NCBI GenBank assembly: GCA_030704615.1
Contig: CM060734.1
Location: forward strand, 5,456,001-5,520,000
Direction of reading: 5' to 3'
DNA: 64,000 bases
Source of the DNA: Takakia lepidozioides
Taxonomy: Eukaryota; Plantae; Bryophyta
Shown here: piece after piece, positions 5,721 to 56,299 of the stretch
Position numbering within the stretch: the first letter of the stretch is position 1
How the letters are laid out: each line of letters starts with the position of its first letter
Notes under the pieces: model-generated
Databases searched by the model: none
What the model was told of the DNA's origin: nothing
What the model saw: only the letters and a program-made list of their open reading frames with translations
Translations under genes and position numbers: made by a program

Positions 5721-6036
5721 TGGAATTGGTGTGAATAGGCCCGCGGTTTCACCACGATTTTATGGCCAAGAGGGAAGGAAGCGAAATTTCGTCCGTTTGT
5801 CCGTGGGCTTTAATGTGTGAATCCACCTAAACCCAGCTGGGGGGGGGGGTAGGGCAACAGAAAGATTCCAAACAAAGAACTGCCTAGACCTTTTCCTCTT
5901 GTTAGTACAATCTCATTCCATAAATTGGTTCTTGGTATCTGTCAGTATAGATATTTTCTTCAATGACAGCTCCCAGGCCAGTTTGGACGAAAGAAAACAG
6001 ACAACTTCCTTTGAATGTAGAGGGATGTCAGCATCA

Positions 6037-8082
6037 TCAGCCAGGCAACATTTTGTGATCTCCAAAAGTGTGTTGAAGCATCAAAATCCAGCCCCTTTTT
6101 ATGTTGGAAGCATCAGGCACAAAGAACAAGAGAGGAGAGTAAGCATGAGATGTTATGCTTACCGGAGGAGGAGAATCCACCGTCTCCTCTGGCTGCAGTA
6201 GCTCAGTGATTTTTTGCGCCGCATTGGAAGACATCAATATGTGAGCCTCTTTGTAAAGCACCATCTCCTTGATGTTGTTGGGCTCCAATTCCTGATTGTT
6301 CTTGTTTTCCTTGTATGCCAGGCCCTTGCGCTTCTGCGAACTCTCAAGTTCAGCCACCATTCGCTGCCCTTTCTCCAGGATGAGGGAGCTGCGGGCCCAA
6401 GTAGCAGGGTCGTTTACCCTGCAACCAAATCCGTCTACCCACAGCCCCTTGTACGGTTTGTGCACATCTTGGAGGTCACTGGAGTGGAAAATTGGGAGTA
6501 CATGAATGATTGCCAGATTTACAAGGGCGTCATTGTTTTCCACCATGATGCCTATGTGCTGCAGATGAGATAGAGAGAGGGAAATGTGAGGAAAGAACTC
6601 CCTGAGAATCTGATTTGTCAAGAGAAGAGTGATATCCTTTTCTCTTCCAACACCGAAATTCTTGGATATGGATTCCTCAACCCAGGCCGAGCGGAAGCCT
6701 TCTCCATCATCCTGGATGCAAAAATTTGTGTACTCTTCAGAGAACGTGTAGACAAGAGGAGTAACACAGATTGCAGCTCTGTCACGAGCATATGCAGATC
6801 CAGGGGCCCAGCCAATTAGCGGCCTTCTTGAGAAGGAATGCAGCTCGAGAAAGGAGATTGCGAGACTAGCACTGCCCAATAAACTGCAGTTCTTCTTCCG
6901 AGAAAGGAAATGAAGCCTAGGCATCTTTGACTCTGACAGGGTTAGTGTCGTATGGGCGGTTGGGATGAATCCATTTGGCCAAGTCCCCACTTGATTTTTA
7001 TTTATTTTTATAGTAGTATGTCCCCCTTGAATAATCCCCATGTCAGCTCCCCCTGAAGCCTGTGCAGTGTCGCTCGGTATCCCATTTTTAAAAGAGGATC
7101 ATGTCTTGTCAAAATGTGGGAGATTACCGTTGGTCGCGTCCAAGACAGAGTTCTTGCCCAGTTTTGGACAGCACGAGCGAACGTGACCCTCACCACCACA
7201 CTGGAAGCATATTGTGGAGATGAGCTCCTCCCTGATTGCAACGACAATGAACGAGTTGTCCAATGTGGGGAGTTTGATGGAGGTACCTATTGGCTTAGAC
7301 TCCGGCATGAGCACTACCAGCTTTGGAACTCCGTTATCCCTGTTGAAATCGAAGTGCACAGTTTCCGTATCAACACTTCTTGCACTGGTGTCCTGAATTG
7401 GCTCAAAAACGTTCAGGGAACCGATGAACGTGCCGAAGCTTGCACCGATTTCTGAGAGAGAAGTTAAGTATGTCGCAGGTAGAAATGGAATTGCGATGAC
7501 CCTTGGTTTCCACATTACTCCTTGCTTATGGCCCCAGTCATGGGTCCAAGGAAAAAAGAAAACCTTCGCAGCAGACGTCTGGGTATTGAACTGTAGCGCC
7601 ATCTCTGCTTCCACTGGAGAACAGAAAAGAACCAGGTAGAAACCTCTGCCCATGGGCAAGCAAAAGTGATGAGCAAGTCCTCCTTCAGCGCCAAGATGCC
7701 CGGCTATCCATCCGCGAACCCATTTCCTAGACCTGAGTTTGCCCGGAAAATAGAGTAGAATCCCCCTTTGAGAGAGTTTTTGCGCCTGGGATTTAAGCTT
7801 CTCCTTATCCAGGGCCAGCACAGGCTGTCCGACGACCTCCTGGGGGATGGAATCTTCCTACATTCCTTCGTTTGACAACGGGGATTGCATATCGAGCGAT
7901 GGGCCTGGACCTTTGCCCAAGATGGAGTCTCCCAATCCATTGGAGATGGAGATGTTTTTGATAATCCACTTTGATTTCCCTCCATGGACAGCTAGCGCGG
8001 AGCCAGAGCGTTGGGCTGCTCCCGAGCGTTGTGCAGAGCCGCCTCTGTTTCCTCTTTTGCTCATTGTTCCTCGGGCATTCAT
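6037..8082 (-). pseudogene. LINE ORF1 (RNA-binding DUF4283-like region plus zinc knuckle), fragmented
   Basis: ORFs 7858-8082, 7099-7821 (GRGFYLVLF, FFFPW, CFQCGGEGHVRSCC) and 6037-7041 lie in tandem on the minus strand. Confidence 0.75.
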
Positions 8083-16285: not shown

Positions 16286-16846
16286 CATGTTATATTGTTG
16301 TTTTCAAGTGTAAATTTTTGCAGAGCCAAGATTTCATAACATTAAGGGTAACATAACAAAAAAGCATTTAACATTTATCCGGGGCCGACTATATCCCACT
16401 TTGGATGGGACACATGGCAATTACGAATTTTTTTAATGTTTTTTAAATAAAAAATGGACAGAGACCCTTGTACTCAAATTAAATAAATATATTACGTCTT
16501 GGGCCTGTCGTGCACCTAAGCATCATGCCACAACATACATCGCTGTCCATCACACATTCTAAGCATACAATCCTAGAAAGCTATGCCACAATCGCCCCCA
16601 TAGCTAGTGATTAGGTCCCTCTAACACCGGATAGCTGACAAGTATCCACCCTATAAGATCACTGATTGGTCTTCAATTGCACAAATCCCAGTATCCGAAG
16701 TCGATAGATCAAGAGGCCGGGTGCAAAAGTAGCACCATCGTTAGTCGTCTTCCTGCAATCCATGGCTTTCACTGGGGTATCCATGGCGTTGAACTCCTAC
16801 TAGCCTGACCTTGGATCACTTAACAACTCCACCATTGGCATACCCA

Positions 16847-17897
16847 CTACCTCTGTCCAAGGCATCGTGGACACAACCATTCTCCACTAGGAACCTCCTC
16901 AAGTGGCGGTGTCAAGCATCCCATATGCCACCCCCTTGAGCATCTATCAAACACCAGCATGCCCACATAGCATGCAACGCAAACCCTGCAGATACGACTG
17001 GAAGGTTGGGCTATCCTCCCATCCACATGTGGAAGGTGACATGGCGCACGATTGCGCACATGGTCCTTCCATACCATGCCATCTCGACCCTCCAGAATCA
17101 ACACTCCCGAAAGCAACACCTCCCGTACCCATAGAATCACACGCCCTGTTGTGACATCCAAGGTTGTAGGTGTTGTCTGCTGCAGATACACATAGTCCCC
17201 AGGGTTGAATCTCCGAACACTCGGTCGATATCCGCCTCCACGTATGGTGGCATATCTCAATGTGTCTCAGTGTTGGGCAATAGCAAGGTTCTCAAAAGCC
17301 ATAGGCATGACTCTCTTGAACAACTCTGCCCGCTGGTCACACGCTTGTATCCACACATCCGGATCATCAAGGTCAAGGACTACTGCAGCCTCCCTGCGAA
17401 TAGATGCAGGCAAATCTGACTCTCGGCCGAAGAGAAGAAAGTAAGGTGAGAAGGAGACAAGTGACGCTTGTTTGCTGAACCTATAGCCCATAGCCAACCA
17501 AGGGAGCTGAAGGTCCCAATCTCCCAGGTGTCCCTTCTGCAAACCGTACTTGCGCAAGCCTCGCTTGACTGTTTGCACAACTCTCTCCGCTAAGCCATCA
17601 GCCTCGGGATGATCCCGAGAAGTAGTACGCTGGTCTATCAAGGCTTGCTCACACAAAGTTTGAAACTCCCCCAAGAACTCTCTCCCTTGGTCCGTGAGTA
17701 CCTCGGCTGGAGCACCGAATTGGCTAAGCACTCAATCTAAGAATGCATACGCAGCCCCTCACTCGCCTTGTCAGGCAATGCCACCAGTTCAATCCACTTG
17801 GAGAAATGTTCCACCATCACCAGCACATACTTGTTATGGCTAATCGTTAGTGGCAATGGGCCTGCGAAGTCAAGACTCCAATGATAGCCCAAACCCA
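16847..17897 (-). pseudogene. Gypsy integrase core with a C-terminal PHD finger (copy 1)
   Basis: DDE core motifs: SLDFAGP, VEHFSKW, LTDQGREF, HPEADGLAERVVQTVKR. C-terminus: CMLCG..(C)DRCSRGWHMGCLTPPLEEVPSGEWLCPRC, a C4HC3 PHD pattern, frameshifted. Confidence 0.9.
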
Positions 17898-17902
17898 TAT
17901 CA

Positions 17903-18288
17903 AAGGCTTTCTCCTGCTCCTCCTCCCACTGTCAGTACTGACCCACCTTGGTGAACTTGGTAAGAGCCTTTGCAATGCTTTAAATCCCTTGACAAACCGA
18001 CGATAGTAGTTTGTCAATCCCATGAAAGCACGAACTATGCTTACATCTATGGGGCGTGGAATGCGTGGAATGGCCTCCACCTTTGTCTGTTGAACACCCA
18101 ATCCTCCAGGGTATATTGTGTGGCCCAGATACTCAATCTGATCATGGAAGAACTTGCACTTTCCAGGGTGCAGTTTCAATCTATGCGCCCTCGAGCGCTC
18201 AAACACCACCTGAAGGTGTCTCTCATGCTCCTCAACTGTGGCATTAATGATGATGATGTCATCAATATAGCACCAGGCGAAGTCTAGC
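17903..18288 (-). pseudogene. Gypsy reverse transcriptase, C-terminal part (copy 1); RNase H deleted
   Basis: FAWCYIDDI, LKLHPGKCKF, IEYLGH and RAFMGLTNYYRRFVKGF. It joins directly to the integrase at ~17900. Confidence 0.9.
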
Positions 18289-18289
18289 C

Positions 18290-19138
18290 CGGAGAGTCAA
18301 GGATTGAGGATCAGTTGGAGGCCAAGGTGGCCAAGGTTTTTGAAGAGGTTGCGGATGTTTCTTTTGCGGAAAATGTTCTCAAGGTGGCTATGGTGGAGCA
18401 AGTGGAGGCTACGCCACAGTCAGGGTGGGCGGACAAGGCCCAAGAGGTTGCTATCTAGCAATCAAAGGATGCGTCTCCTACCTCCAAGCCTGGTGTACCC
18501 AAGGTTGCAGTCACTGAGGACAATTGGGAACCAGATATTGGACCTATAGTCACCGGAGGAGAGAGACGGAGGATCCAGCGGTTTTTAAAGGCTTATAGAA
18601 ATTGCTTTGCCTTCGGTTTGAAGGATTTGGGGAGTTTGAAGGGCCAGGAGATTCGTATTGATTTGGCAAGTGATACGTCAATTTTTCGAAGGCCCTACAG
18701 GTATAGTGACATGGAGAGGTCTTTGATCCAGTCACGGACTATGGAGTTGTTCGAAGCTGGATTGGTGGAGTTGTCAGGCGGGGAGTATGCCTCGGCAACG
18801 GTGATGCCAGCTAAGAAGGATATATATGGCAATTGGACAGAAAGAAAGATGTGTGGGGACTACCGTCCTGTGAGCCGTCAGACTAAGTCCGATAGATATG
18901 CCATGCCAACTCCAAAGGAAATCTTTGATGCCATTGGGCATGCGAAGGTGTTTAGCACATTGGACTTACGATCGGGTTATCACCACTTGCCAATCAAAGA
19001 GGCTTACAAGCAAAAGATGGCATTCTGGGGGATTGACCAGCATGGGAAGGATTGTTTGTACCAATGGCGCTTCCTACCATTTGGGTTGAAGAATGCTCCT
19101 GCAGAGTTTCAGAAGGTCATGGATAGGATTCTTGCATG
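18290..19138 (+). pseudogene. Gypsy reverse transcriptase, N-terminal part, inverted relative to the rest of copy 1
   Basis: ORF 18618-19256: RRPYRY, MCGDYR, FSTLDLRSGYHH, FLPFGLKNAPAEFQKVMD. It is the reverse complement of copy-2 sequence ~52100-52960. Confidence 0.92.
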
Positions 19139-19269
19139 CTTGAGAGATCCAATGACTTTCTCTTTGCGCAGAAAGAGAAAAAATATGCGACCGTCAAACA
19201 TACGTGACGGATGTGACTCAACGCGACGGACGCACATGACGTCAAACGTAATGTGACAGACAGATAAGT

Positions 19270-19995
19270 ATGCCGCACGTGATTGCCCCACTCGATTAAC
19301 CACCGCCAAAGGTGGACGATCATCATGTCGCATTCTCTGTGGTTGCCTCCCTTGGTCCAAAATGCCCTCAACCGTGAGGTTGAGTGGCCGTTGAATGGAA
19401 TCATAGGCTCTCTTGAGCAAGTCTGGTGGTGTAAGATTGGTCCACCACAACCTAGGCCTGTATACCCGTGAACCCACTGCAGCTGCATCCAACAATACAG
19501 CTGGTCCAATCCATGACCGGATCTGATGCACACTAGCCATAACCCTGGCCCGAGAATCCCCCATGAGAGGAACATTCTCCAGGATGTAAGCTGGAGGTTG
19601 CACTTGCCTCACCTGCAAGTCACGCAACACTCGCAACATCTCCCAAAACAGATGCGATCGTGCATCATGCAAACCATTACCATGACCTGCGGGAGAATGT
19701 GCTTGGCAAGGCCACCCTCCTATCACCAAGTCAATGGGACCATGCCAATCCAAATCCTCCACCCCCAGCATAGTAATGTCTGCTGGCAAGGCCTTTTGGT
19801 ACTCTTGAATTGCTGAGAGATGCAACAACTCAGGATACTGATGTGTGAGCAAGGCAACATGGCGCATGGAAACACGTCGAGCAATCTCATCATTCTCCAC
19901 ATACAAGTACTTGCGTACTTTGATTCTTGTTTGCAACACTCATGCAAGCCCAGTGCTCATGCCTCCAAACAGGTGTAGCAAACAAATGTCTGAGT
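19270..19995 (-). pseudogene. Retrotransposon-encoded DNMT3-like C5 cytosine methyltransferase domain (motifs I-VIII, copy 1)
   Basis: Motif I LLHLFGGMSTGL (~19955-19985), motif II YLYVEND, motif IV GPIDLVIGGWPCQ with catalytic PC (~19703-19740), SHLFWEMLRVL, motif VI ILENV (~19571), motif VIII LDAAAVGSRVYRPRLWWTNL. Confidence 0.9.
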
Positions 19996-20429
19996 CAAGT
20001 TGTTGCCAGATAATAGGCACTGTGTCCAATGGAGCTAACTGAGGAGGTCCAGGTGATGTCACTGAACTCCCCTCACCTACCGATGGAAAGGCCTCCTGCC
20101 ATGCTTACTGCACACACTGGCTTGTCACTTGCTGCAAATCCCCAACTGTACCCCACAGTGAGCTATGCACAGGAACATGAGGAAGCAACTCAGCCTTGTA
20201 TGCCAATTGCTTGTCCTCATCAGGTGGTGGCCTATCATCTGCATGGCTATTGCCTTCCAAGAGCTCACCACCCCAAGCCACCACACATGAGAATGTAGCC
20301 AATGGTGGCATCATGTTCCTATAATCCACCGCTACATTCCCAATAAACCGCACTGGGAGCAATGCATGTTGGCCATCCCCTGACTGCCACTCCGGCCTAT
20401 AGGATGCCATTTCCTCCCAAAAGTCAGAG

Positions 20430-21518
20430 TAAATCCCATGGGGTACAACACAACCCCACCAACAAGCACATCATAGGACATCGCGTCCGTAACAATGGCT
20501 TTGGCTCTCATGACTGAACCATCTATAGGATGATCTGGCTGTAGTCGAATGAAAGCTCATGGCGTGTGATCCCTCGCGCCTTCTCTGAACCACCTAAAGA
20601 CGTCTGAATCTGGAAAATGCAAGGCTCCAAATCCGCCTCTGTAAGGCCCAAGCCTGCAACTACTGCTCTCCCCAGCATCAATGGTTGTGCTCCCGAGTCC
20701 AACAAAACCCGCAGTGGCCTATACCTCCTCTCGGTTGGACCACCCAACTGAAACACTACATCCTGATTGTCCACCAAGACTACTCCAGGAGTCACCATGC
20801 TGCGCTCAATGGCTGGCCTAGCTGGCAACTCCTGCAACCTTGCAGCTGCCGCTTGCCATGGCGCAGCTGTGGCTGACTTCACCCTTGAATCCAAAACATC
20901 CATAGTTTGCACTTTATCTGCTATCTCCGCAGATAGTGCCGATGCATCACCACTCTCATAGAGTCTAGCTGCTAGTCTGAACACAACAGCTGGCCGAATC
21001 CCCGGCATTGCAATGATCATTGCAGAAAACAATGGAGCTTGACAAACCGCCGTAGCCGCCCCCAACAATGTACTGGCTGCACCTTGCTTTGCAGCACCAC
21101 CCACTGGCATTTCCCTAGCCACACCAACTCTCTCCGATGGTACTCGTGGCTCTACCTCTGACACACCTGGGCGAACAAGTGCCATTGATGACGTAGGTGA
21201 CATCGTCTCAGCCAATGTAAAGGACCGTGGAAGCCTTGTCTGACGACTTGCTTCCCCCTTTTGTGGATCAAAATTTACATCCGCTCCTCTTGGCTCAGGA
21301 GCACGCGTTGCTACTTGAGTGACAGCAGTATAAAAGTCCAATACATGCAATGGCCCTGCAAGTGCGGCTCTACACATTAAGCCCATACCAATCTGGTCTT
21401 CCCTAGGCATAGGAGGTTGTGTAGGTGGGGCTTGAACCTTAGGCCTTGGAGCTGGCGCAACATTAGTAGTTGTCATGGCAGCAAGCCGTTGCTCTAGCTG
21501 GGCAAACCTATCCATCAT
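20430..21518 (-). pseudogene. Gag-pol linker and retropepsin aspartic protease (copy 1)
   Basis: ORF 20523-21518 contains VLLDSGAQPLMLG. A YDVLVG-type flap end lies at ~20460-20480. Confidence 0.85.
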
Positions 21519-22290
21519 GCTTTGGTCATGACCTTGACCCTAACACTGTGCTCCTTGGTTTTGGTTACGACCTCCACCACGAGCTCTGCCTCCTCTACCT
21601 CTCTGGACTACATTGCCTCGTCCTCGGCCACCATTGTTTCTTTGGAACTGGCCTAGCCGTAGCTTAGGATGCAAGTCATAACAATGGGCCTCCTCATGCC
21701 CATACTTGCCACAATGCCCACACTGTAATTGTGTAGGTTGTGCCTGTGTCGGCCCTTTGCCTCTCTCCGGGCAATCCTTCTTAACATGAGGTCTTCCACA
21801 TGAATCCCAACAAGTCACACGCGAATGTTGTTGGCCTGAGAATGAAAGAAGAGACCTCTGCATCTGAAATCCTCTCTGTCCTTCCCTGGGCTATGCCTGA
21901 GCCCCCTTGTTGCCTTGAACACGTTGGGGTAGTGGTTGTTGTTGGCTACGAGCCCCACTTCGTTGTGTCTCCTTGCCAAACCCCACCATAACCACCCGTT
22001 CCTCCACCATATTGAGTTCTATCCGCTCTGACAGCAAAAACACATTTGCTAAGGTGGGTTGGGCCACTTGTAGGAGAGTTGCATTCCGCACCCTTCTCCT
22101 CAGCTCCTTGTCCAGGATCCCATATACCAGAACTTGACTGCCCGAGCTTCTGTAACCCCTTGGGTTACATTTATCAAGCACCTCATGCGAGTGTAAGCCT
22201 CCCTCAAACTCTCAGTAGGCCTCCGTTGGAACTCTTGCAAGCTCCGCAACTTCTCTGTCCTTATCCCCTGGTACTTAGAGAGTTATTTGA
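21500..22290 (-). pseudogene. Gag C-terminal part with two zinc knuckles (copy 1)
   Basis: YQGIRTEKLRSLQEFQRRPTESLREAYTRMR (retrotransposon gag motif), C..CGRPHVKKDC, CGHCGKYGHEEAHC and an RGG-rich tail. Confidence 0.8.
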
Positions 22291-23045
22291 GAGATCCTTG
22301 AAAGGTCTTGTCTATTGCTTAAGCAAGAGAGTGTGGAGATAGGGTAGTGGGATGAGAGCATGTTGTGATAGGAATTGCTTTAGTCTCTCTTCCTTGTAGT
22401 CTTCCATCCTCTCTGTAGTCCAAAACCTTTCCGTAGGTGGAGGCAAGAGTCAGTCCGGGTTTGGGCTGGGGTGTCTTGCAGAAGCGACAGTGTGGAGTGT
22501 TTTTGGTGTGGGGGAGTTACTGTTTTGATTTTCTTGTGTTTGGATCCCCTCCACACCTGCATGCTTGACTGTGCGCCATGTTAGCTTTGTGTGGGCGCTT
22601 GTTTTCATAGGAGGTTGGTCCGGATTTGATCACCGGCCAATCCTAGAGCGTGCTGTCGGTGGTGAGGCTGGGGTGATGACTAGTCAGACCATCATTGTTT
22701 CTCTTATGGTGAGGCTGGGTTGATGACCAACAGATCATAGGAGTGCTTGCGGTGGATGTAGGTGCAGGTACAGGTTTATGTTATGAACCTAGTAGTCTAA
22801 GCCATTAGCTGCAACATGTTCTCTACCCGATTACCTTGTGGAAAGGGGGATTAGAGACATGTTTACAACAGGTGTGGTTGTGAGTTTTCATCATGAAGGT
22901 GCCAGTAGTTGCTGAGGGAAGTGCCGATACGAGCACTAGCGATACTAGTGGGTACACAAGACGAGGTGTGCGGTTTAGGCCACCTTCACCTTCAGTGTCT
23001 TCTGAGGAAGGTTCAGACTAGGAGTCAGGAGGATTCTCGCCGAGG

Positions 23046-23535
23046 GTGCAAGCCATTTCCTTGCCATTGTTGTGGGACACGATGGAGGAAATGTATAGAG
23101 CTACCAAGGGGCCACGTCAATACTCTGGAGCTATGGGAACCATCGAGCTTGATTATTTCATACATGAGTTTGATAGTTGGTGTGATTTGCAGCAGATGCG
23201 CAATCCACAACTGTTTACACCTTTTAGGGCATGGAAAAGACTGTTTCAGCACCTTGAGGGGCCGCCTATGGACGATTACCATGAGTTTAGGCGGGGACAT
23301 GAGATGGAGATTGAGGAATGACGAAATATTGGTCACCTGACTATGTCTCCATCACTAGAGGCACAAGAGCAGCGGCGACACCAGCGGCGACACCAGCAGC
23401 TACACCAACATCTCCAACGGCAAGCACTAGTAGTGGGACAAGGTGGTATAGGAGCTGGGAAATCCACTCAAGCTCCTGCTGCAGCATCAGCACCCGTGCA
23501 TGTCTTTAACCCAGTTGTGGAGTTCTTCGAGGATC
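23046..23535 (+). pseudogene. Gag N-terminal part, inverted relative to the rest of copy 1
   Basis: YSGAMGTIELDYFIHEFDSWCD..LFQHLEGPPMDDYHEF..FNPVVEFFEDL. This plausibly continues into YQGIRTEKL on the minus strand at ~22275. Confidence 0.6.
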
Positions 23536-23539
23536 TTGC

Positions 23540-23890
23540 CAATTCTCGGCCCTCAAGGACCTGAAATAGTCCTTCAACAAGTCGCCAAAGACTCCTCAAG
23601 CTCGCCAAATATCGGCCTCTAAGGACCCCAAACAGCCTTCCAAAGGCTCCAAAAACTTGCCAAATATTGGCATTCAAAGACCTCACATGGTCCTCTAATA
23701 GCCCTCCAAAGGCTCCAAAAACTTGCCAAAACTTGGCATTCAAGGACCGCAAATAGTCCTCCAAACAGTCATCCAAATACCTCTTCAAAGTGGCTTACAA
23801 AAGATCCTCAAAGTGTCTTCCAAAAGCACCTCAAAGGACCCCAAAGATCCCCCAAACAATCCTCCAAAGGGCCTTGAAAATCCTCCAAAA
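23540..23890. repeat. Degenerate ~55-65 bp tandem repeat
   Basis: aaatagtcct(c/t)caa..ggctccaaaaacttgccaaa..ttggcattcaa recurs. Confidence 0.6.
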
Positions 23891-23911
23891 AAGCCCTATC
23901 TTGTCTTTACA

Positions 23912-25629
23912 TGTCACTATGTTCCTAGCCTATAGTGACCGTTCCCAGCCTATGGTGACGGTTCCCACACTTTGGTAACTGCTCCCATGCACCTAGGGTT
24001 TCATGTGCATCTCATGCTAGGGTTTGTGCATCCCAAGCTAGGGTTTGTGCTTCCTTGAGCTTCATGCTTGATCTCCTCAAGCATCCATGACTTCTATGAG
24101 ATACCAAAGTAAGCTCCCTTGCTCTTCTTCATCTCAAGCTACAACCAAGTTTGGTTCCAACTCACCTAGCAATGCATTTGCTACAAAACAAGCTCTCCTG
24201 CTCATAGGAACTCGAACAAGACATTCTTCCCCATTGGCAAGCATCAAAGCATTGCTCCCTTTTGGCTCTTGTTTAAACTCCTACATGCGCTTTTCCTTGG
24301 CCATTCACATGCATAGTACACTTAGCTTCAAGATGTTGCTCTCCTTTATGGTAACAAGAACCAACACATTGCCACTTCATGCAAAAGAGGAGTTTTCAAC
24401 TCTTCACTTACTAGTTCCAGTCTTTGTCCATGAATGGCCTTTGAGTCCACCACTTGAGCTCCTCTTTGAGTTTTGGTGATTCAAGCTCCCTTCATTTGCT
24501 AGCTCAAGAGCCACTCCTCTCAAGCTTGAAAAGGCAAAGCTTAAGCCAAAAACATGCTCCACACATGCACCACCTCATACACAAAGGAATGAACTCGCTC
24601 ACTTCACCTTCTAGCTTTCCTCAAGCTTGAAGTTGGAAGCCACACTTGGAAAGCATGCTCCATACATGCGCCACTTGCTTGGTCAACCACTTGTTTCACC
24701 AAGAGCAATCCAATAACTCATAGAACTAGCAAAAACACTCCCTTCTAATGCCTTAGCTTGCTTGTTTGTCAATCAAATGAAACCCCACTTGGCTTCTTTT
24801 TACCATGGAGAGAACAACCACTTCTTAGCTTATCTTGAGCTACTCAATGCTCCTCAAGTTACCCTTGTTGTACTCTTTCTATGGTGTTTCTAACCTAAGC
24901 ATGTGCCACTCTTTGGCTTCTCTTTCACACCATGAACAACTAGAGCTTGTTCTTGAAACCCTAGTGTCTATCTTCTCCACACACAAGATGCTTCTCTTGT
25001 AATGCAAGAGCTCTTTTCCAAGCTCTCAAACCCTTAGTGCACATAGAAGCCCTCTTTCTTGCAAAACCATGCAAGCTTTGTGATGTGAGGGCTCTCTCCT
25101 TAAGCGCTCCACCTCTATAGAGCAAAGTAATGCTTCTCAAACCCTAACATCCATGTTCTCCACGCCACAAGGATTTTCCTTTGCAACACCTGCAACACCT
25201 TGCAACACAAGAGCTCTCTACCAAGCTCTCTCCAACACACAAGTGCTAAACTAACCCTTATACTCCGCACTCACACGCATAAGGAGATCTTCTTCTAGTG
25301 AAAAGAGTTGAGAAATGAGAGAAGTGAAAGACCATCAAACCACTCTCAAATATGGAAGAAAACACACTAAGACCACACCCTAGTCCTTTCAAGTGTGAAT
25401 CCACTCCATCACTCATATATAAGTCAAGCCAAGGGCACCTTTGCTAAAGGAATCCGCCCTACTAACCCTCACACACTCTCTCTCAAGAGCTCAGGCTATG
25501 GAGGCTCAACTACAAGAATATGAGCCTTCCCAAGCCTCAAGTGGAGATAACCCACTCCACATCCCAAGTGAGATTATTCATCTCACTTGGCACATGGAAC
25601 CTAATGAAGTCCCAATGCACAAAATACAA

Positions 25630-25669
<40 letters not shown>

Positions 25670-26610
25670 CTCTGGCTGAAGCCGGTGTAACTAAGAGCCA
25701 CTTCACCTTTCGGTTACTGCCCCCTTTCGGGGATCGGCCCTATATATATATATATAACTAAAGAGAGAGTGTCCTGAGGGACACCAGGTAGCCGGGGGGG
25801 GGGGGGCCTATGGGCCCCGAGGCGCGTTAGAAGAACCAGACTCGAGTTGGCATTTGTTGGTGATGATAGCTGTGAGGAAACGGAGTGTTGTGAGGTGGAT
25901 TTCCTTGAAGCATTTATGGATTGGGGGGTGGGGAATTTTGAAGTTATTATGTATATCATTGATGCTAGCGTTGTGGATGCCGCCCCTTGTTCCGGCAGTG
26001 ACAACGGTGAGTGGGCCTGTTGCCCAACCCTGCCGTTGAATTGCCAGGATGAGGGGGGCATATTTTTGTCGTTTTTCAAGGATGGAGTCGCTAGGGTACC
26101 GATCATGGAAAAATGTAAATTCGATGAAGTGGACGGTAAATTGTGGGGACGGGGAGGCAGGTGCTGGGTTAGTAGTGGGTAGACCTTGGATAATAAGTAT
26201 GTCTGGGCAAAGTCTAGCTGGGCAGGAGCATGGTGATCGGGTACATGTGCATGGTAGCAACCATGGTGGTACAGTGTGGTTTGGTGGTCTTCCCTGGTAA
26301 ATACCAGCATTAATGAGCGTGAACCAACGTGTCTCAGCACGTTTTGAGAAGAGTTTATGCAGGTGCTATACTGCGTGGTTGTGTCGGGTAATATGTAGGC
26401 CGTGAATAACCGGGTGTGTGCATCGGCTAAGGAGGTGAGGCCAGGTATCCCGTTCATAATGTGTTGTTGAGCACAGGGGGCAGTATGGTGATGGGTAGAG
26501 TCGTGGCCAGAAAATATGCTTACGTTGATAAAATATAAATATAAATATCTAAAACGTCCTAGTTAACTAGAAGTAGGTAATTCTAGTTAACCATGACTAA
26601 AACCATGATA
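23912..26610. mobile_element. LTR-like sequence (~1.8 kb after removing the nested insertion)
   Basis: Termini are tgtcac.. and ..aaaaccatga(t/c)a. The portion 25303-25632 plus 26530-26610 is homologous to 48898-49313, which ends ..aaaaccatgaca. Confidence 0.6.
25633..26529 (-). mobile_element. 5'-truncated non-LTR retrotransposon with a restriction-like endonuclease (RLE; R2/CRE/NeSL-type architecture)
   Basis: CPLC..ERDTWPHLLSRC..RHN CCHC knuckle (~26370-26490), then PDILII..IEFTF..EKRQKY..GW..VTAGTRGG (ORF 25808-26260). It has a (CT)n tail and a 12-bp TSD aaaata(c/t)aaata at 25621-25632 and 26530-26541. Confidence 0.85.
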
Positions 26611-32220: not shown

Positions 32221-33458
32221 CATGGAAAATAAAAACAGAAAATAATAAAGATAATAACTTTTTGTGTCCCAACCTTGAGCAGATTTCATCTAATGTGTGT
32301 ACATTCATCAGCAAAGAAGAGATAGTGAGGGATGGAGGTGGCAGGGGATGGATGAGTGTTTCCTGGGAAGTTAGGAGTAGTTAGGATAACTGTCCTCCGT
32401 CTCCGGCTGGTTACGGGTTCAAATCCACGTGATGGTGCTGGACTTAATTCATCTCGGTAAATATAGTCGGAATTTTGCGACATAAATAGCGCCACGACTC
32501 TGAAGCGGAGCGGCAGCCACGGCGGCGGGGCAGACGTGTGGAAGCGGCGGCGGCTGCCCGCCAGAAAGGTTCATGCTGCCCGTCGCAATGCGCATCACGT
32601 GAACACGCGCCTTCTGGCGACGCGTGTGCCGCCTGCCCCTCGTGCAGCCCATGCCATGGCATGCGATAATTGATGCGCATGCGCGCACCTACGCGCGGTT
32701 GACTGCGCGGTTTATCGCGCCGTTTACGACGCTGGTTTGCACTTAGCACACGAGGCGCCGCCAAGATGCTCACCGGCGGTATCCGGTCGCCTGCCCTAGG
32801 CTATGACTGGCTACCGGCATTCAACGGTCAGGTAGAGGAGCCCCGAGAAAGCAAACACTGGCAACTCTGCATCTGTGGTGTTGTTCAGACCTTCTCTACG
32901 GAGTGGAGCTTGTCTTGGGCCCTCTCTCACGGTCTGAGTGTGCTCTCCTATATCTCTCTATATGCTTCGTGGTGTTTCGCTCTGTTTGTTTCCACTTGCT
33001 GTCTTTCTACGTCTCTTCTCCTTGTCGTCCTAGCATCTCCATTGTGTGGGCTTCTCATTCGCAGTGAGTATTAGAAAAACGGGTTTTGCTATTGTTCGCG
33101 TCTTGTGCTTTTGTTCCTTGTCCGTGTTTGGATCATTGGGTGGTGTTGGTGTGCCTAGGCTAGCTCCAGTTTTGAACGAGTCATTGTCGTTGGTACCCCC
33201 CTTGTTGCAAGGCGGTAACGTGGAGACGTAGCCTGAGCGAGAATGGAGAGCTCTGGGTTGGGGGTTTGGCAGCAGTGAGGAAAGGGCATAGCTTTCTCAC
33301 GATTGGGTTTCGAAGACGTATTTTGGTTGTCAGAAAGGCACCGGTGGGCAGGAATCCAATCCCGTCTGAGACCAGCAACGGAGACAAGGAGGTTGGATGG
33401 TTGCTGGGCGACAGGGTGCGCTACAAATATATACAATATATATAGACTGGTAGGGGAA

Positions 33459-33674
33459 ATGACGTCAGGAACACGGTTACCTACTTGGAAAGAGAGGGAG
33501 AATAACAAGAGACGAGAGCGTCGGCGGAGGGCAATTGCCGCTAAGATCTTTGCAGGTCTGCGTCTGTATGGGAACTACAAGCTGCCCAAGCATTGTGACA
33601 ATAATGAGGTTTTGAAGGCACTGTGTGCTGAGGCCGGCTGGACAGTTGAGGACGATGGCACTACCTATCGCAAG
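33459..33674 (+). CDS. BES1/BZR1: BES1/BZR1-family transcription factor, exon 1 (DNA-binding domain)
   Basis: [72 protein letters not shown], followed by a GT donor at 33675. Confidence 0.97.
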
Positions 33675-48807: not shown

Positions 48808-49313
48808 TGTCGTGCACCTAAGCATTGTGCCACAACATACATCGTTGTCTACCACACATTCTAAGCACACAATCTTAGAAAGTCATGCCACAATGATAAG
48901 AGATGAGAAAGGAGAGAAGTGGAAGACAATGAAAACTCTCTAAGCATGAATCAATCACACTAAGAACAAGCCTTAGTCCTTCCAAGTGAAATCCACTATC
49001 ACATAAACTAAGTCAAGCCAAGGGCACCTTTGCTAAAGGAATCCATCCTACAAAGCCCTCAACACACTCCCTCTCAATACCTAGAGCTATGGAGGTGAGA
49101 GAGGCTCATGGAGGCTCAACTACAAGAAGATGAGCCCTCCTCAACCCTCACAAGAGAAAAACCCATCCCCATGTCCCAAGTGAGGCTTGACACCTCACTT
49201 GACATATGAGACCAAATGAAGTTCCAACACACAAAATACAAATATAAATATCCAAAATATCCTAATTAACTAGAAGTAGGTAATTCTAGTTAACCCTGAC
49301 TAAAACCATGACA
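48808..49313. mobile_element. 506-bp LTR-like unit (TGTCGTG..CATGACA) abutting gypsy copy 2
   Basis: The first 85 bp match 16506-16590 and 49316-49400. The remaining ~420 bp match the right end of the 23912-26610 LTR-like sequence. Confidence 0.75.
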
Positions 49314-49659
49314 GATGTCGTGCACCTAAGCATCGTGCCACAACATACATCGCTGTCTACCACACATTCTAAGCACACAATCCTAGAAAGCTACGCCACA
49401 ATCACCCCCTTGGCTGGTGATTAGGTCCCTCTAACACCGGATAACTGACAAGTATCCATCTCAATAAGATCATCGTTTGGCCTTCAATCGCACATGTCCC
49501 AATTTTCTAAAGTCCATGGATCAAGAGGTCGGGTGCAAAGAGAGCCCCATCATTAGTCGTCTGTCTGCAATCCATGATCTTCAATTAAGTATCCATGGCG
49601 TTGAGCTCCCATCAGCTAGACCTTGGATCACTTGTCAACCTCACCATTGACATGCCCAT

Positions 49660-50990
49660 TACCTCTGTTCAAGGCATCGTGGACACAAACCATTCTCCGC
49701 TATGAACCTTCTCAAGTGGCGGTGTTAAACACCACCCCCTTGAGCATTTGTCACACACCAATATGGTTGCTACACCACCAGCATGCCCACATAGCATGCA
49801 ATGCAACCCTGCAAGTACCATTGCAAGGTTGGGATCTATCATCCCATCCACATGTAGAGGGTGACATGGTGCACAATTGCGCATATGGTCCTTCCATACC
49901 ATGCCATCTCGACCCTCTAGAATCAACACTCCTGAAGGCAACACCTCTCGTACCCGTAAAATCACACGTCTTGCTGTGACATCCAAGGTCATTGGTATTG
50001 TCTGCTGCAAATACACATAGTCTCCATGATGGAAACGCCAAACCCATGGATGATATCCTCCTCCACGAATGGTGGCATACCTCAATGTGGGCAATAGCAA
50101 AATTCTTAAAAGCCATAGGCATGACTCTCTTGAACAACTCTGCTCGCTGATCACATGCTTGTGTCTACACATCCGGATCATCAAAGGTTGATGACTACTG
50201 CACCCTCCCTGCGAATGAATGTAGACAAATCTGGCTCTCGGGAAGGAAATAAGGCAAGAACGAGGCAAGTGATGTTTGCTTGCTAAACCTATAGCCCATG
50301 GCCAACCAAGGTAGCTGAAGGTCCCAATCTCCCAAGTATCCCTTCTGCAAGCCATACTTGCGCAAACCTCTCTTGACTGTTTGCACAACCCTCTATGCCA
50401 AGCCATCAGCCTTGGGATGATCCCGAGAAGTAGTGCAGTGATTTATCAAGGCTTGCTGACACAAAGCCTGAAAACTCCCCCAAGAACTCTCTCCCCTAGT
50501 CTGAGCTGTGAGTACCTCGGCTGGAGCATCAAATCGGCTAAGGACTCGATCTAAGAATGCATACACAGCCCCTTCACTGCCTTGTCAGGCAATGCCACCA
50601 GTTCAATCCATTTGGAGAAGTGTTCCACCATCACCAGCATATACTTGTTATGGCGAATCGTTAGTGACAATGGGCCTGCGAAATCAAGACTCCAACGATA
50701 GCCCAAACCCATAATGGGTAAAGGATGCAATTGTGGAGTAGGTGCATTGAAAGAAGCCTGCCTCTATCACACACCATACACCGTGTCACTAACTGTTGCA
50801 TATCCGTGTGCATGCCCCGCCACCAATACTGTCTTTTTGCAGCAAACTATGAGTGCGCCGCACCCCAAAATGTCCGAACTCCTCATGGGCATGGCGTACC
50901 AATCGCGCTCGTTGTGTTGGATGATGCACAATTCTCACTCGTCCATCCTCCCATACACGAAGTAGATGAGTCTCATTCCACTTGAACCTC
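49660..50990 (-). pseudogene. Gypsy integrase (HHCC zinc finger and DDE core) plus PHD finger (copy 2)
   Basis: HAHEEFGHFGVRRT, the DDE core, and CMLCGHAGGVATILVCDKCSRGW..CLTPPLEKVHSGEWF. Confidence 0.88.
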
Positions 50991-51279
50991 TTAGCTCGTT
51001 GCAGAATCCGATCTATTTCCTTAGCAGTCACACTGGCTGTTATCTCTCCGGTACGAAGGTAAGCCAACACTGCTGCATCTTCATGCACATCCTTAGCATC
51101 ACCAAGCTCCTCACTGATCTCTGGATCATCATGCACACTGTCTACATGACCAATCACACGGGATGGACCAGCTTGAGCTCCCATTGCTAGAATGCACAAA
51201 AAAACAGATGCATGCTATCTTGGCACCATCTCCTCATCCGTTCACCATGCCAACAAGCTCCTGTATCATCATGCTCGCT

Positions 51280-52620
51280 CGTACATGGATTGCGACTCAA
51301 TCCCTCCACATCCCAGTTGACTATATCGGCTCGATGCACCACCTTGAAGTCGTACTCTTGAAGCATAAATGTCCACCGTGCAAGCTTTCCTGTAAGTTTG
51401 TGTGACTCCATCAACCACTTCAATGGTTGGTGATCCGTGACAAGGGTAAAGAGATTGTCATAGAAGGAGCATCTGAAATGTGTCACTGCCCATACTGCAG
51501 CTAGACACTCTCCTTCATATGAGCTATACTTCGCCTCAGCATCATTGTTCGAGCAGCTGACATATGCCACTACGAACTCTCTTCCCTTGTCATCCACATG
51601 TGTGAGCACTGCTCCCCATCCCAACATACTCCAATTTGTAGGTAGAAAGGTCGCCCCCGAATATGTCGCCTCAGAATAGGTGCAGAAGTCAATCGAGCCT
51701 TGGGTTCCTCAAAGGCTTCTTCCTGCTCCTCCTCCCACTGCCACTCCTGACCCACCTTGGTCAACTTGGTAAGAGTCTTTGCAATGCTGCTAAATCCCTT
51801 GACAAATCGTCGATAGTAGTTTGCCAACCCCATGAAAGCACGTACTTTGCTCACATCTGTGGGACGTGGAATGCACGCAATGGCCTCCGCCTTTGTCTAT
51901 TGAACACCCAATCTTCCAGGGTATATCATATGGCCCAGATACTCAATAAGACCGTGGAAGAACTTGCACTTTCCAGGGTGCAGTTTCAACCCGTGCGCTC
52001 TCAAGCGCTCAAACACTATTTGAAGGTGTCTCTCATGCTCCTCAATCGTGGCACTAAAGATACTGATATCATTAATGTAGCACCGGGAGAAGTCTAGCCT
52101 TGCAAAAATCCTATCCATGACCCTTTGAAACTCTGCAGGAGCATTCTTCAACCCAAATGATAGGAAATGTCATTGGTACAAACAATCCTTCCCATGCTGG
52201 TCAATCCCCCAGAATGCCGTTTTTTGGCTTGTGAGCCTCTTTGATTGGTAATTGGTGGTAACCGGATCCAGGTCCAATGTGTTAAACACCTTTGCATGCC
52301 CAATGGCATCAAAGATCTCCTCTGGAGTTGGCATGACATATCTATCGGACTTTGTCTGATGGTTCAAATGACGATAGCAGAACGATAGTCCCCACACATC
52401 CTTCTTTCTGTCCAATTGCCATAAATATCATTCATAGCTGACATTACCATTGCCGAGACATACTCCCCACCTGACAAATCCACCAATCTAGCTTTGAACA
52501 ACTTCATAGTCCGTGACTGGATCAAAGACCTCTCCATGTCACTATACCAGTAGGGCCTTCAAAAAATTGGCGTGTCACTTGCCAAATCAATACGAATCTC
52601 CTAGCCCTTCAAACTCCCCA
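51280..52620 (-). pseudogene. Gypsy RT and RNase H (copy 2)
   Basis: RT motifs as in copy 1. RNase H: GWGAVL..VVAY..YSSYEGECLAAVWAV..TDHQPLKWL..KLARW. Confidence 0.9.
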
Positions 52621-53149
52621 AATTATTCAAACCGAAGGCAAAGCAATTTTTGTAAGCCCTCAGAAATTGCTGGATCCTCCGTCTTTCTCCTCCGGTGACT
52701 GTAGATCCAACATCTGGTTCCCAATTGTCCTTAGTAACTGCAACCTTGGGTACACCAGGTGTGGAGGTAGGAGATGCATCATTTGGTTGCTAGATAGCAA
52801 CCTCTTGGGCCTTATCCGCCCACCCTGACTGTGGCGTAGTCTCCACTTGCTCCGCTATAGCCACCCTGATAACATCCTCCGCGCAAGAAACATCCTCAAC
52901 CTCTTCAAAAACCTTAGTCACCTTAGCCTCCGACTTATCATCAGTGTATGGCTCTCCCTACTCCTCATACTACTGTTTGAGAGATCCAATGACTCCTCTT
53001 TGCGCATCTCATCCCACATCTGCCATGGGTGTTTGTACCCCACAATCTTGTGCTCGCCCCCACTCACTGCCTCAACCGTCCCGGTTGGCAGGGAGGATGC
53101 ACTATCCAATGGGAGTGCCGAAATAGCCACCAATGCTTGCAATCTCCAT

Positions 53150-53820
53150 TGTTCAGCCATGCACAAGCCAATGACCCATGTCAAGCAATTTAGATCCATT
53201 GCTTGACCACCTGTCAGCGTGATGCCTCTGACAGAGCTGGCACAGCTGTAGTGCCTGTGGCAAACCCCATTGCCCGCTCTCGCTCATCCGCATTGGGCTC
53301 TACTAACTGATGTAGCACACTGTCCCAAATCAACCCAGGACCATTGTCTCGGAAAGCATGAGATAAAGGAAAGCTCATGAGTGTAGGTAAGGGCGCACGT
53401 GGTTGCCCCACTGACCACTGCCAAAGGTAGACGGTCATCATGTCGCATCCTTTGTGGTTGTCTCCCTTGGTCCAAAATGCCCTCAACCGTGAGATTGGGT
53501 GGTCGTTGAATGGAGTCGTATGCTCTCTTGAGCAGCTCTGGTGGTGCAAGATTGGTCCACCACAATCGAGGACCATGCCGGTCCAAATCTTCCGCCCTTG
53601 GCAGTAAAATATCTGCTGGCAAGGCCTTGTGGTATCCTTGGATTGCTAAGAGAGGCAACAACTCATGATACTGGTGTGTGAGCAAGGCAATGTGGCGCAT
53701 AGAAATACGCTAAGCTATCTCATCATTCTCCACATACAAGTACTTTCATACTTTAATCCTTGCCTGCAATGCTCCTGCAAGCCAAGTGCTCATGCCTCAC
53801 AGGTCTAGCAAATAAATTCC
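53150..53820 (-). pseudogene. DNMT3-like C5 methyltransferase remnant (motifs I-II and VIII-X; catalytic IV-VI deleted; copy 2)
   Basis: LLDL..GMST.LAGALQA, YLYVEND, a deletion junction DLDRHG|PRLWWTNL at ~53570, LPTLMS, EPNADERERAMGFATGTT (motif IX) and SR.QV.GQAMDLNCLTW (motif X). Confidence 0.85.
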
Positions 53821-54299
53821 TAAGTTAGGTGGTTGCCATGTAATAGGCACCATGTCCAAAGGAGCTAAATGAGGTGGACTAGGTGATGTCACTAAACTCC
53901 TCTCGCCCACCGATGGAAAAGCCTCTTGTCATGCTTGCTGAACACACTGGTTTGCTACTCGATGCAAATTCCCAATTGTATCCCATAATGGAATATGAAC
54001 AGACGCATGAGAAAGCAACTCAGCCTTATATGCCAATTGTTTCTCCTCATCAGGTGGTGGGCTATCATCTGCATGGCTATTGCCCTCCAAGAGCTCACCA
54101 CCCCAAGCCACCACCCCTGAAAATGCAGCCAATGTGGGCATCATGTTTTTATGATCCACCGTTACATTCCCAATTAACCGCACTGGGAGCAGTGCACGTC
54201 GGTCATCCCCTGACTGCCATTCCAACATGTAGGGTGTCGTTTCCTCCCAAAAGTCCAGAGTAAATCCCATGGGGTACGACACAGCCTCACCAACAAATT

Positions 54300-54700
54300 A
54301 CACATCGTATGACATCGCGTCCGTAACAATGGTTTTCACTCTCATGACTGAGCCATCCGTAGGATGATCTGGCTGCAATCAAATAAAGAGTTCATGGCGT
54401 GTAATCCCTCGCGCCTTCTCTGAACCACCCAAAGATGTCTGAATTTGGAAAGGGCAAGGCTCCAAATCTGCATCTGTAAGGCCCAAGCCTACAATTGCTG
54501 CCCTTCCCAACATCAATGGTTGTGCTCTCGAATCCAACAAGACTTGTAGTGGCCGATACCTCCTCCCGGCTGGGCCACCCAACTGAAACACTCCATCCTG
54601 ATTGTCCACCAGGACTACTCCAGGAGTCACCATGCTATGCTCAATGGCTGGCCTAGCTGACAACTCTTGCAACCGTGCAGCTGCCGCTTGCCATGGCGTA
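54300..54700 (-). pseudogene. Retropepsin aspartic protease (copy 2)
   Basis: ORF 54379-54846 has QVLLDSRAQPLMLGR and is nearly identical to copy 1. Confidence 0.85.
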
Positions 54701-56299
54701 GCTGTGGCTGTCTTCACCCTTGAATCCAAGTCATCTATGGACTGCACCTTGTCTATTATCCCCGCAGACAATGTTGATGCATCACCTCTTACAGAGTGTA
54801 GTTGCCAGTCTAAACATTGCGGCTGACCAAATCCCCGGCATTGCAATTGTCAATATTGCATAAATCAATGGAGTTTGACAAATAAACGTAGCCGCCCCCA
54901 ACAATGTACTGGCTACACCTTGCTTTGCAGCTCCACCCACTGGCATTTCCCGAGCCACACCAACTCTTCCCAATGGCACTTATGGCTCTACCTCTGACAC
55001 ACTTGGGCGAGCAGGTCATCTCAAATTTGCCAGGCCACGGATACTCAACAAATATGACACTTTTTCCGGAGTTTCATGGGTTCGTACTACATCCAAACTA
55101 TATTCGTGTCATCTTGTTAAACATTATAACCACACGATCATGATATCATCATGATTTTAACAAATATTACACCAAAATAATGCGATTGGCGTGTATACTA
55201 TGATTGTGTCCATCACACACAATTTCCTATTGGCACATTGGTGCAATGTGGGTTTGCATATTCACACGACAACATCATTGAAAATGTGTTCCCCACATGC
55301 TCATGGTATCTATGCTAAATTGATATTGTAGTTGTGGGACAACGGAAGACATGTTAATTTCACGTGGCACTTGGCTAGCATTATATTGGTGTGCACTTCG
55401 CACTTCTGGAATATTATTGTGATAGCTTTATGTGCAGATTGTTGATTAAATTTGAATTGATAAATAATCTATATGATTTATTTAGACAATTTTGATCAAA
55501 CAAATTGAAATAAAAGATAAATTCAAAGATGTTGGCATTCATATTTAGAACCACGCAGCTGAGTACAAAGTGAGCCCAAGAGAACTCAATCCCTCAAAAG
55601 AGTTCTCCCCTTGAGCTCTCAATTTTGGAATGTTTTTTCTGAATGTTGCTATAAGCTAAAATTAGAGATGTGATCCCGAAAAGAAGAAAATGGGTCGGTC
55701 AAGCATGGGGGGGGGGGGGCAAGCACCGTGAGGGTGAGCTAGAGCTGAAAAACTTCATAATAACTAACCTCACCTAATCTCCAGCCCTGGCCACTACTAT
55801 GCTTATGGTACGACTGAAGACTCGCATTGAATCAGCAGAGAATTGGAAGCACGCGGCCACAGCAAGAGCATGAAACTAGGGTACTTCTGGGAAGCATAAA
55901 ACGATTGTTGGCAATGCTCATCATCCGATCATTACCAGTACTAAAACCAACCGATATTTGACATCCATGTTCCTCAAAACCTGTTTGGATTCGGAGGAAC
56001 AGTCAATGCTGAGTTCAGACAAGACCAGCACTCGCCACTCGCATCCACCATACCCTGCGTATTCCTGTAGAAAGTTCAGCCACTCAGCCCTGTAGCAGTC
56101 AGCCACCTCCATCTTCAACATATCACTGGTGAAACCACAACATCAAGTTAGCCATTTGGGTTGAAATGCAGAACTCATAACGACACTAAAGCTACAAGGG
56201 TTGGAAAGATACAGACATTTGTTGGAAGGTGTTAATTGTTATTGTACATACTACTGACTTAATAAGTCAACTGGAGAAACAAAAGTGCAGTTGACATAC

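Follow-up and report, generated by a model that had tools for sequence, protein, structure and literature searches.

Does a retrotransposon of the bryophyte Takakia lepidozioides carry a cytosine methyltransferase of its own, and what would such an enzyme do for the element? The question was raised by an earlier note on a 64,000-nucleotide stretch of Takakia DNA (contig CM060734.1, positions 5,456,001 to 5,520,000; hereafter called the window), which described two Ty3/gypsy copies with a DNMT3-like methyltransferase (DNMT) in their coding region. For the only Gypsy example assayed, KnitGypsy-Dnmt3 of the alga Klebsormidium nitens, no methylation was detected in yeast; its authors describe this outcome as inconclusive in the covered text of PMC5890265.

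Two dead copies of one element

The two copies in the window are located ~33.8 kb apart, are 81-93% identical, and carry the DNMT in the same place (Table 1). Both are dead, and each lacks a part of the DNMT domain. Copy 1 is flanked by the 4-bp target duplication GGCC on either side of 16506-26610. The two parts of its A repeat match the A2 repeat of copy 2 at 91% and 77%. The match of its integrase to PF00665 (E 0.0017) is under the curated cut-off, and the PHD finger matches PF00628 with E 3.5e-7. The nested insert within the A repeat (25633-26529, ~900 bp) includes runs of (GA)n and (TA)n, and its 282-codon frame has no Pfam match.

In the alignment of the two copies, ~390 bp of the 3′ part of the copy 1 DNMT is exchanged for 103 bp of unrelated sequence, and one in-frame stop is placed after motif I. 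In copy 2, an internal deletion of 280 bp removes motifs IV and VI and most of motif VIII. The earlier note had credited both copies with the full motif series I-X. The motifs are indeed ordered in this way, but copy 1 lacks IX-X and copy 2 lacks IV-VI, and the motif list is a composite of the two copies. The foreign segment at 19171-19273 has short palindromes at its junction and may represent one end of a small DNA transposon.

Table 1. Positions, strands, and condition of the element parts in the window
Feature	Position	Strand	Remarks
Copy 1, whole insertion	16506..26610	-	rearranged, dead; A repeat, long leader, ORFs, one B repeat
5′ A repeat, copy 1	25299..26610 (26530-26610 + 25299-25632)	-	split by ~900-bp nested insert
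gag N-terminal part, copy 1	23082..23537	+	inverted vs remainder; tblastn with Marchantia P0008 residues 1-145, E 1e-32
Remaining gag + aspartic protease, copy 1	20550..22276	-	frameshifts and stops present
Zinc knuckle, copy 1	21681-21725	-	within gag
Protease active-site motif, copy 1	20682-20708	-	precedes DNMT
DNMT3-like C5 methyltransferase, copy 1	19274..19981	-	motifs I, II, IV, VI, VIII; IX and X absent
Motif I, copy 1 DNMT	19946-19981	-	
Motif II, copy 1 DNMT	19889-19903	-	
Motif IV (GWPCQ), copy 1 DNMT	19703-19741	-	
Motif VI (ENV), copy 1 DNMT	19571-19585	-	
Motif VIII, copy 1 DNMT	19433-19489	-	
Foreign 103 bp replacing DNMT C-terminus, copy 1	19171..19273	.	gap in copy 1/copy 2 alignment
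Inverted piece, copy 1	18291..19136	+	ORF1 end, conserved stop, RT N-half
Conserved stop TAG-CAA-TCA, copy 1	18456-18464		within inverted piece
RT C-half, copy 1	17900..18289	-	adjoining ~1 kb (RNase H + integrase N-terminus) deleted
Integrase core + C-terminal PHD finger, copy 1	16847..17731	-	Pfam
B repeat, copy 1 3′ end	16506..16601	-	purine-rich tract just before
Copy 2	48808..55016	-	5′-truncated, dead
DNMT, copy 2	53194..53811	-	motif I broken, II, IX, X; deletion near 53570
Motif IX, copy 2	53262-53285	-	of window copies, only in copy 2
Motif X, copy 2	53194-53208	-	of window copies, only in copy 2
Conserved stop TAG-CAA-CCA, copy 2	52784..52792	-	between ORF1 and RT
RT, RNase H, integrase, PHD region, copy 2	49700..52726	-	frameshifts and stops
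3′ split repeat, copy 2	48808..49411	-	B1 49316-49411, 2-nt spacer, A2 to ~48904, B2 48808-48903

Similarity of the domain to DNMT3

What kind of methyltransferase is encoded? A C5 methyltransferase had been reported at 19270-19995, and we confirmed it on the minus strand: the HMM check proposed in the earlier note matched the open frame 19109-19939 (-) of copy 1 to PF00145 with E 1e-12 and 48.6 bits, the cut-off being 22 bits. When the in-frame stop is read through, the best solved relative of the copy 1 domain is DNMT3A (E 4e-11), followed by DNMT3C and DNMT3B, and DNMT3A/B/C fill the top 29 rows of the PDB ranking, before HaeIII, DRM2, and HhaI. A profile comparison with solved structures also gave DNMT3A as the best relative (E 1.6e-25). 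We further modeled the full-length relative P0009 with AlphaFold (61 aligned sequences; mean pLDDT 86.5), and all of the Foldseek matches listed for the model are DNMT3 structures, with DNMT3A as the best (E 3e-19, TM 0.80 by target length). The sequence ranking, the profile, and the fold all place DNMT3A first, in line with the resemblance to DNMT3 that the earlier note saw in the motifs; DRM, DNMT2, and the bacterial enzymes are more distant by sequence and predicted fold. The Atlas returned only a generic DNA-methylase match, with a best cluster that is mostly Streptophyta.

The motif order and the fold resemble those of the mammalian DNMT3A/B catalytic domain (PDB 6w89, 2qrv, and others), whereas the identity is ~22%, the PWWP and ADD domains are absent from the element DNMT, and additional segments follow motif II and occur within the target-recognition region. 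Motifs I to X are complete, in the non-permuted order, in relatives such as P0002, P0008, and P0009. Among 204 representative domains with <80% identity to each other, the catalytic Cys of motif IV is present in 202 (the other two have gaps), the Glu of motif VI in 204, and the two arginines of motif VIII in 198 and 201. Copy 1 retains the Cys, the Glu, and the Arg-x-Arg. Motif IV contains E-C, rather than P-C, in 95 of the 204 relatives, while P-C is kept in the land-plant branch.

A retrotransposon family of land plants

A search with the copy 1 domain yielded 21 longer proteins with 50-67% identity, the named sources being Marchantia polymorpha (14), Calypogeia fissa (2), and Sphagnum (1). 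They are gag-protease-DNMT proteins, and one gene model continues into the reverse transcriptase (RT) and RNase H. In a metagenome scan, 112 of 277 pattern matches were confirmed and 80 loci were kept, corresponding to 62 distinct copies, the main group of which clusters with the Sphagnum proteins; the 17 pattern matches in viral contigs included no relative. In the set of 62, the DNMT is preceded by the protease in 47 of the 51 distinct loci with room for it and followed by RT in 35 of 41, while a query of the integrase C-terminus and PHD finger matches 24 of the 62. The order gag-protease-DNMT-RT-RNaseH-integrase-PHD is kept in the Marchantia, Calypogeia, Sphagnum, and metagenome relatives, and the PHD finger stands behind the integrase in the two window copies and in the majority of the long relatives. 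The DNMT is found in the same place in both copies and across the liverwort, moss, and Klebsormidium elements, which bears out the earlier view that it is a family feature and not a chance insertion.

Takakia contigs cover the whole element, including the DNMT, at a summed depth several hundred times that of single contigs (in run X1, 26,000-56,000 over the DNMT bins versus 53-73 for single long contigs). This depth shows a very abundant repeat, and is not a copy number. Two sequencing runs, which we guessed to be RNA, gave contigs that are 80-95% alike over parts of the element and are uninformative on expression.

A few members deserve mention on their own account. MpVg00370 and MpVg00540 of Marchantia are full-length ORF1 copies on the V sex chromosome scaffold. 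At L063:2174-4369 (minus strand), a second DNMT-RT-RNase H element adjoins the main one; it is far more decayed and divergent, with 37-47% DNMT identity. P0387 is filed under a bacterial MAG (Obscuribacterales) as a DNA methyltransferase, and is likely eukaryotic DNA in the bin.

Is the domain maintained as a protein? Between the window copies, dN/dS is 0.27 for the DNMT (72 codons), 0.26 for the protease, 0.43 for RT, and 0.29 for the integrase. The pairwise DNMT values between subfamilies are 0.08-0.17 where dS is computable, and they are rough because dS is 2-3, near saturation, or not computable at all. Among 60 Sphagnum-type copies, where decay dominates, the DNMT value (0.57) exceeds those of RT (0.41) and RNase H (0.31) and is similar to those of the protease (0.62) and the integrase (0.59), the linker having 0.72. 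The comparison of dN/dS across copies, suggested earlier, therefore indicates purifying selection on the DNMT, which has been maintained as a protein over the history of the family. Judged from these sequences, the domain is a DNMT3-like C5 methyltransferase fixed in a Ty3/gypsy family under purifying selection.

The element sequence itself bears no methylation footprint of its own in the CpG ratio or in the C-to-T differences. The CpG o/e of the element is 0.46, as compared to 0.45 for the whole window, with no element-specific CpG depletion. The C-to-T differences (CG 0.174, CHG 0.131, CHH 0.080) follow the order CG > CHG > CHH, which is what host silencing alone would give.

A conserved stop codon between the DNMT and RT

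How is the DNMT connected to the rest of the polyprotein? It had been placed inside pol, between the protease and RT. The domain does lie behind the protease in both copies, but an in-frame stop cuts it off from RT: the DNMT closes a gag-protease-DNMT frame (ORF1), and the stop before RT is conserved. All 44 locus rows containing motif X and the RT start, some of which are one insertion seen in different samples, have TAG or TAA followed by CAA at one homologous site in the RT frame. Counted by distinct loci, 44 of 61 contain the site (28 TAG, 14 TAA, and 2 non-stop codons; 17 gave no match), with CAA directly after it in all 44. The TAA forms fit G-to-A decay, we infer. RT continues the DNMT frame beyond the stop in 32 of the 44 rows, and also in subfamilies with differing linker lengths; the other 12 are, in our reading, off-frame through single-base indels in decayed copies.

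The Marchantia gene models (1278-1281 aa) end at the matching sequence, 72-94 residues past motif X, and the same distance is found in the Sphagnum, Calypogeia-cluster, and further relatives, a few truncated records excepted. The DNMT is likewise the last domain in the proteins of a sister element clade and of the Klebsormidium clade, while P0034, P0199, and P0252 have no stop here and continue into RT. Since the stop separates the DNMT from RT, the single gag-AP-DNMT-RT-RH-INT frame that the earlier note anticipated is not expected in the land-plant branch.

The sequence UAG-CAR-YYA is the tobamovirus-type readthrough signal, as described in the covered part of PMC2754532. In sequence context, the full signal is matched by both window copies and by L022 (TAG-CAA-CCA), whereas most Sphagnum-type copies deviate from it, with CAA-CCC after the stop instead of the full CAR-YYA. 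The divergent locus L068 has TAG-TAG-CCA. From this context, the UAG-CAA stop is likely leaky and read through to produce RT-RNase H-integrase-PHD. Alternatively, RT and the integrase could be made by re-initiation, from a spliced message, or from a subgenomic RNA. Re-initiation has to be considered because the Sphagnum-type copies have an ATG two codons past the stop. In addition, the RNA downstream of the stop forms no stable structure in either window copy (z about -0.35), the values for four other loci being -1.0 to -2.6 against mononucleotide shuffles only. Nevertheless, the ATG is absent from both window copies and from L022, L060, and L068, and a route that bypasses the stop leaves the shared frame and the invariant CAA to be explained; we consider it unlikely.

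Terminal repeats and insertion

Split direct repeats with the layout A1-body-B1-A2-B2 were found in L029, L033, L046, L063, and L067/L069, and window copy 2 has B1-A2-B2. The element ends are TGTC..GACA. Among the nine distinct insertions with both ends located, the 4-bp target duplication is exact in seven and agrees in three of four bases in two; L063, in which the 5′ end could not be located, is not part of this count. The junction of B1 and A2 has the form CA-NN-TG in all nine loci with the junction listed, as well as in copy 2. Integrases trim a dinucleotide from element ends. The junction looks like two abutted ends with the trimmed dinucleotide, and so it likely templates the ends during reverse transcription, and the integrase may act on such a junction. 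No tRNA-type primer site (TGG) was found after A1 in four loci or in copy 1. L032 (B only) and L074 (B-A-B) have a near-identical 3′ flank, and single-B 3′ forms may be B-by-B recombinants or collapsed assemblies.

The layout is shared with the Ngaro-type tyrosine recombinase retrotransposons, for which the covered part of PMC8547959 gives the repeats as A1-[ORFs]-B1A2B2. In contrast to Ngaro and DIRS, the present element has an rve-type DDE integrase (rve and Integrase_H2C2 matches), TG..CA ends, and 4-bp duplications, and none of the Pfam scans of the family detected a tyrosine recombinase domain. The NCGN target preference given for the Phygy lineage, in the portion of the source that was covered, is not seen in the target duplications. 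The combination of split repeats and an integrase suggests an unusual replication route. Standard LTR finders would likely miss the family, because they need two equal LTRs inside the target duplication.

Relatives in green algae and in other elements

How widely is this kind of element distributed? A profile search of 1.84 billion representatives yielded 380 proteins (clusters at 50% identity; E up to 1e-30). A second architecture, RT-RNase H-DNMT-integrase-PHD, accounts for 113 of the 377 proteins collected; those with a named source come from the chlorophytes Hariotina reticulata, Tetradesmus deserticola, and Chlamydomonas eustigma. The members of this branch (P0181, P0184, P0208, P0422, and relatives) carry a PHD finger at the C-terminus and, in some cases, a G-patch, and in many of them the DNMT is below Pfam detection for DNA_methylase.

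We built a DNMT tree of 58 rows, consisting of 52 element DNMTs and 6 prokaryote-like outgroups, without host DNMT3. All 52 element DNMTs fall on one side of a branch with 98/97 support, with an unresolved base. The second architecture forms one clade (98/92), and the window domain belongs to a nine-row clade (100/100), in which the named members are all land plants. In an RT tree from a fast search, which is weak and in which the support is unreliable after re-rooting, the land-plant RTs are grouped and the two architectures are separate. One capture followed by a move within the polyprotein appears to be the simplest reading of these trees. A grouping of all proteins with the DNMT before RT, supported at 0.98 by FastTree, was rejected, as with outgroups it appeared in only 36% of the bootstrap trees.

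The Klebsormidium protein KFL_013780020 (P0109) consists of zinc knuckle-protease-DNMT, ends six residues past the DNMT, and belongs to the same DNMT family. The precedent that the earlier note pointed to in a charophyte and dinoflagellates is thus borne out by PMC5890265, in its covered text, and is closer than a precedent in concept. That text describes KnitGypsy-Dnmt3 as having the gypsy domain set, an intronless, non-permuted DNMT3, DIRS-like repeats, and Ka/Ks under 0.2. It views the DNMT as acquired by the Klebsormidium lineage, and nowhere mentions Marchantia. The land-plant family is similar in its Ty3/gypsy order protease-RT-RNase H-integrase with an rve integrase, and in its intronless DNMT within the polyprotein coding region, in frame with the protease and RT. 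Repeats described as DIRS-like and purifying selection are also common to both. In contrast, the hosts here are land plants, and their DNMTs make up a separate clade that the tree does not resolve as sister to the Klebsormidium clade. The paper, as covered, puts the DNMT in the Pol ORF, whereas here the UAG-CAA stop separates it from RT; the PHD finger, the 4-bp duplication, and the CA-NN-TG junction are absent from its covered text. By sequence, the family fits the KnitGypsy-Dnmt3 kind of Klebsormidium, now in land plants.

Retrotransposon-encoded C5 methyltransferases are also known from SymbioDIRS-Dnmt3, which methylated CG in yeast, and SymbioLINE-Dnmt, both of Symbiodinium (PMC5890265), and from the EpiLTRs (bioRxiv 10.64898/2026.05.21.726589). 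In the covered parts of these papers, they belong to other element classes or DNMT clades and are regarded as separate acquisitions; the EpiLTR DNMTs are sister to DNMT4 and are accompanied by DAM and a chromodomain. The covered parts of PMC6317226, PMC10952607, and PMC11244446 contain nothing on Gypsy-DNMT3 elements in land plants. More generally, the literature searched gave no land-plant or chlorophyte report, in agreement with the earlier suspicion that such a land-plant lineage may be undescribed. PMC12344493 and the 2026 preprint, in their covered parts, ascribe such elements to “streptophytes”, so that land plants may already be represented in their trees. Added here to the known kind are a conserved stop behind the DNMT, split repeats in an element that inserts in the manner of an integrase, and a chlorophyte branch with the domain in a different position.

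Proposed role of the enzyme

What would the methyltransferase do? We assign a probability of roughly 0.55 to the reading that the window contains two dead copies of a high-copy land-plant Ty3/gypsy element with a gag-protease-DNMT ORF1, and that its enzyme is likely located in the virus-like particle, where it likely methylates the element's own cDNA before integration. The proposed cycle is as follows.

Translation: Ribosomes would mostly stop past the DNMT, yielding Gag-protease-DNMT as the main product, and occasional readthrough would add RT-RNase H-integrase-PHD, so that the DNMT would be made at the Gag level, in excess over RT and the integrase.

Packaging and methylation: As a part of the Gag precursor, the DNMT would be packaged and then freed by the protease. 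The cDNA would be the only DNA inside the particle, and thus new copies would arrive pre-methylated. Such pre-methylation would shield the cDNA or render the new insertion silent and host-like.

Integration: The PHD finger would direct the integrase towards a histone mark.

The family as a whole does not require the enzyme in Gag-level amounts, because the green-algal DNMT sits after RNase H and some relatives lack the stop. The missing methylation footprint in the element sequence and the negative yeast assay of KnitGypsy-Dnmt3 speak against the proposed methylation.

More tentatively, the sequences might reflect a plant-wide lineage of PHD-finger Ty3/gypsy elements, extending from chlorophytes to liverworts and mosses, in which a single uptake of a DNMT3 preceded the divergence of green algae and land plants, and the domain was later relocated in the polyprotein. 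The land-plant branch would then combine a capsid-level DNMT, supplied via the leaky stop, with Ngaro-like split repeats and a DDE integrase acting at the CA-NN-TG end junction, and its pre-methylated copies would write part of the host transposon methylation independently of the host enzymes.

An active enzyme could instead work after nuclear entry, together with the integrase-PHD protein, on the insertion site or on chromosomal copies. The PHD finger behind the integrase and the position of the DNMT directly before the integrase in the green-algal relatives would suit such a function, and insertion-site effects are raised in the covered text of PMC5890265. In the land-plant branch, however, the stop leaves the DNMT together with Gag and separates it from the integrase, and we think this timing improbable. 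Somewhat less probable again is a domain that acts on RNA, or that serves as a nucleic-acid-binding module with slight or incidental catalysis. The negative yeast assay of KnitGypsy-Dnmt3, the RNA methylation suggested for another element class (both in the covered text of PMC5890265), and the frequent E-C form of motif IV point in this direction, but the catalytic residues hardly vary, P-C is retained in the land-plant branch, and the domain is closer to DNMT3 than to DNMT2. Finally, although the domain is broken in both window copies and the trees lack host DNMT3, a chance capture or nesting of a host DNMT3 fragment with no role in the element cycle is refuted by the shared position and frame in liverwort, moss, and Klebsormidium elements, the 380 clusters, and the selection on the domain, and is highly improbable.

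Methylation of the cDNA in the particle, which we prefer, can be addressed in a genetic model: the family is present in Marchantia polymorpha as several hypothetical proteins of the ORF1 length given above, which makes the activity, the cDNA methylation, and the readthrough directly testable. Bryophyte DNMT gene counts, and the residual methylation in mutants, could be affected by element-encoded enzymes.

Other features of the window

Outside the two copies, the window contains a PLS-type PPR gene at 46244-47991 (+) with 303-bp repeats, an E domain in another frame, and a DYW-like tail that is apparently broken. Like the BES1 gene listed below, it marks the host as a land plant. Three long frames without Pfam matches at 4476-7857 (-), of which one has a zinc knuckle and another an endonuclease-like stretch, are probably a decayed non-LTR element. 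A BES1/BZR1 transcription factor gene with two visible exons is located at 33279-35491 (+) (PF05687, E 5e-45).
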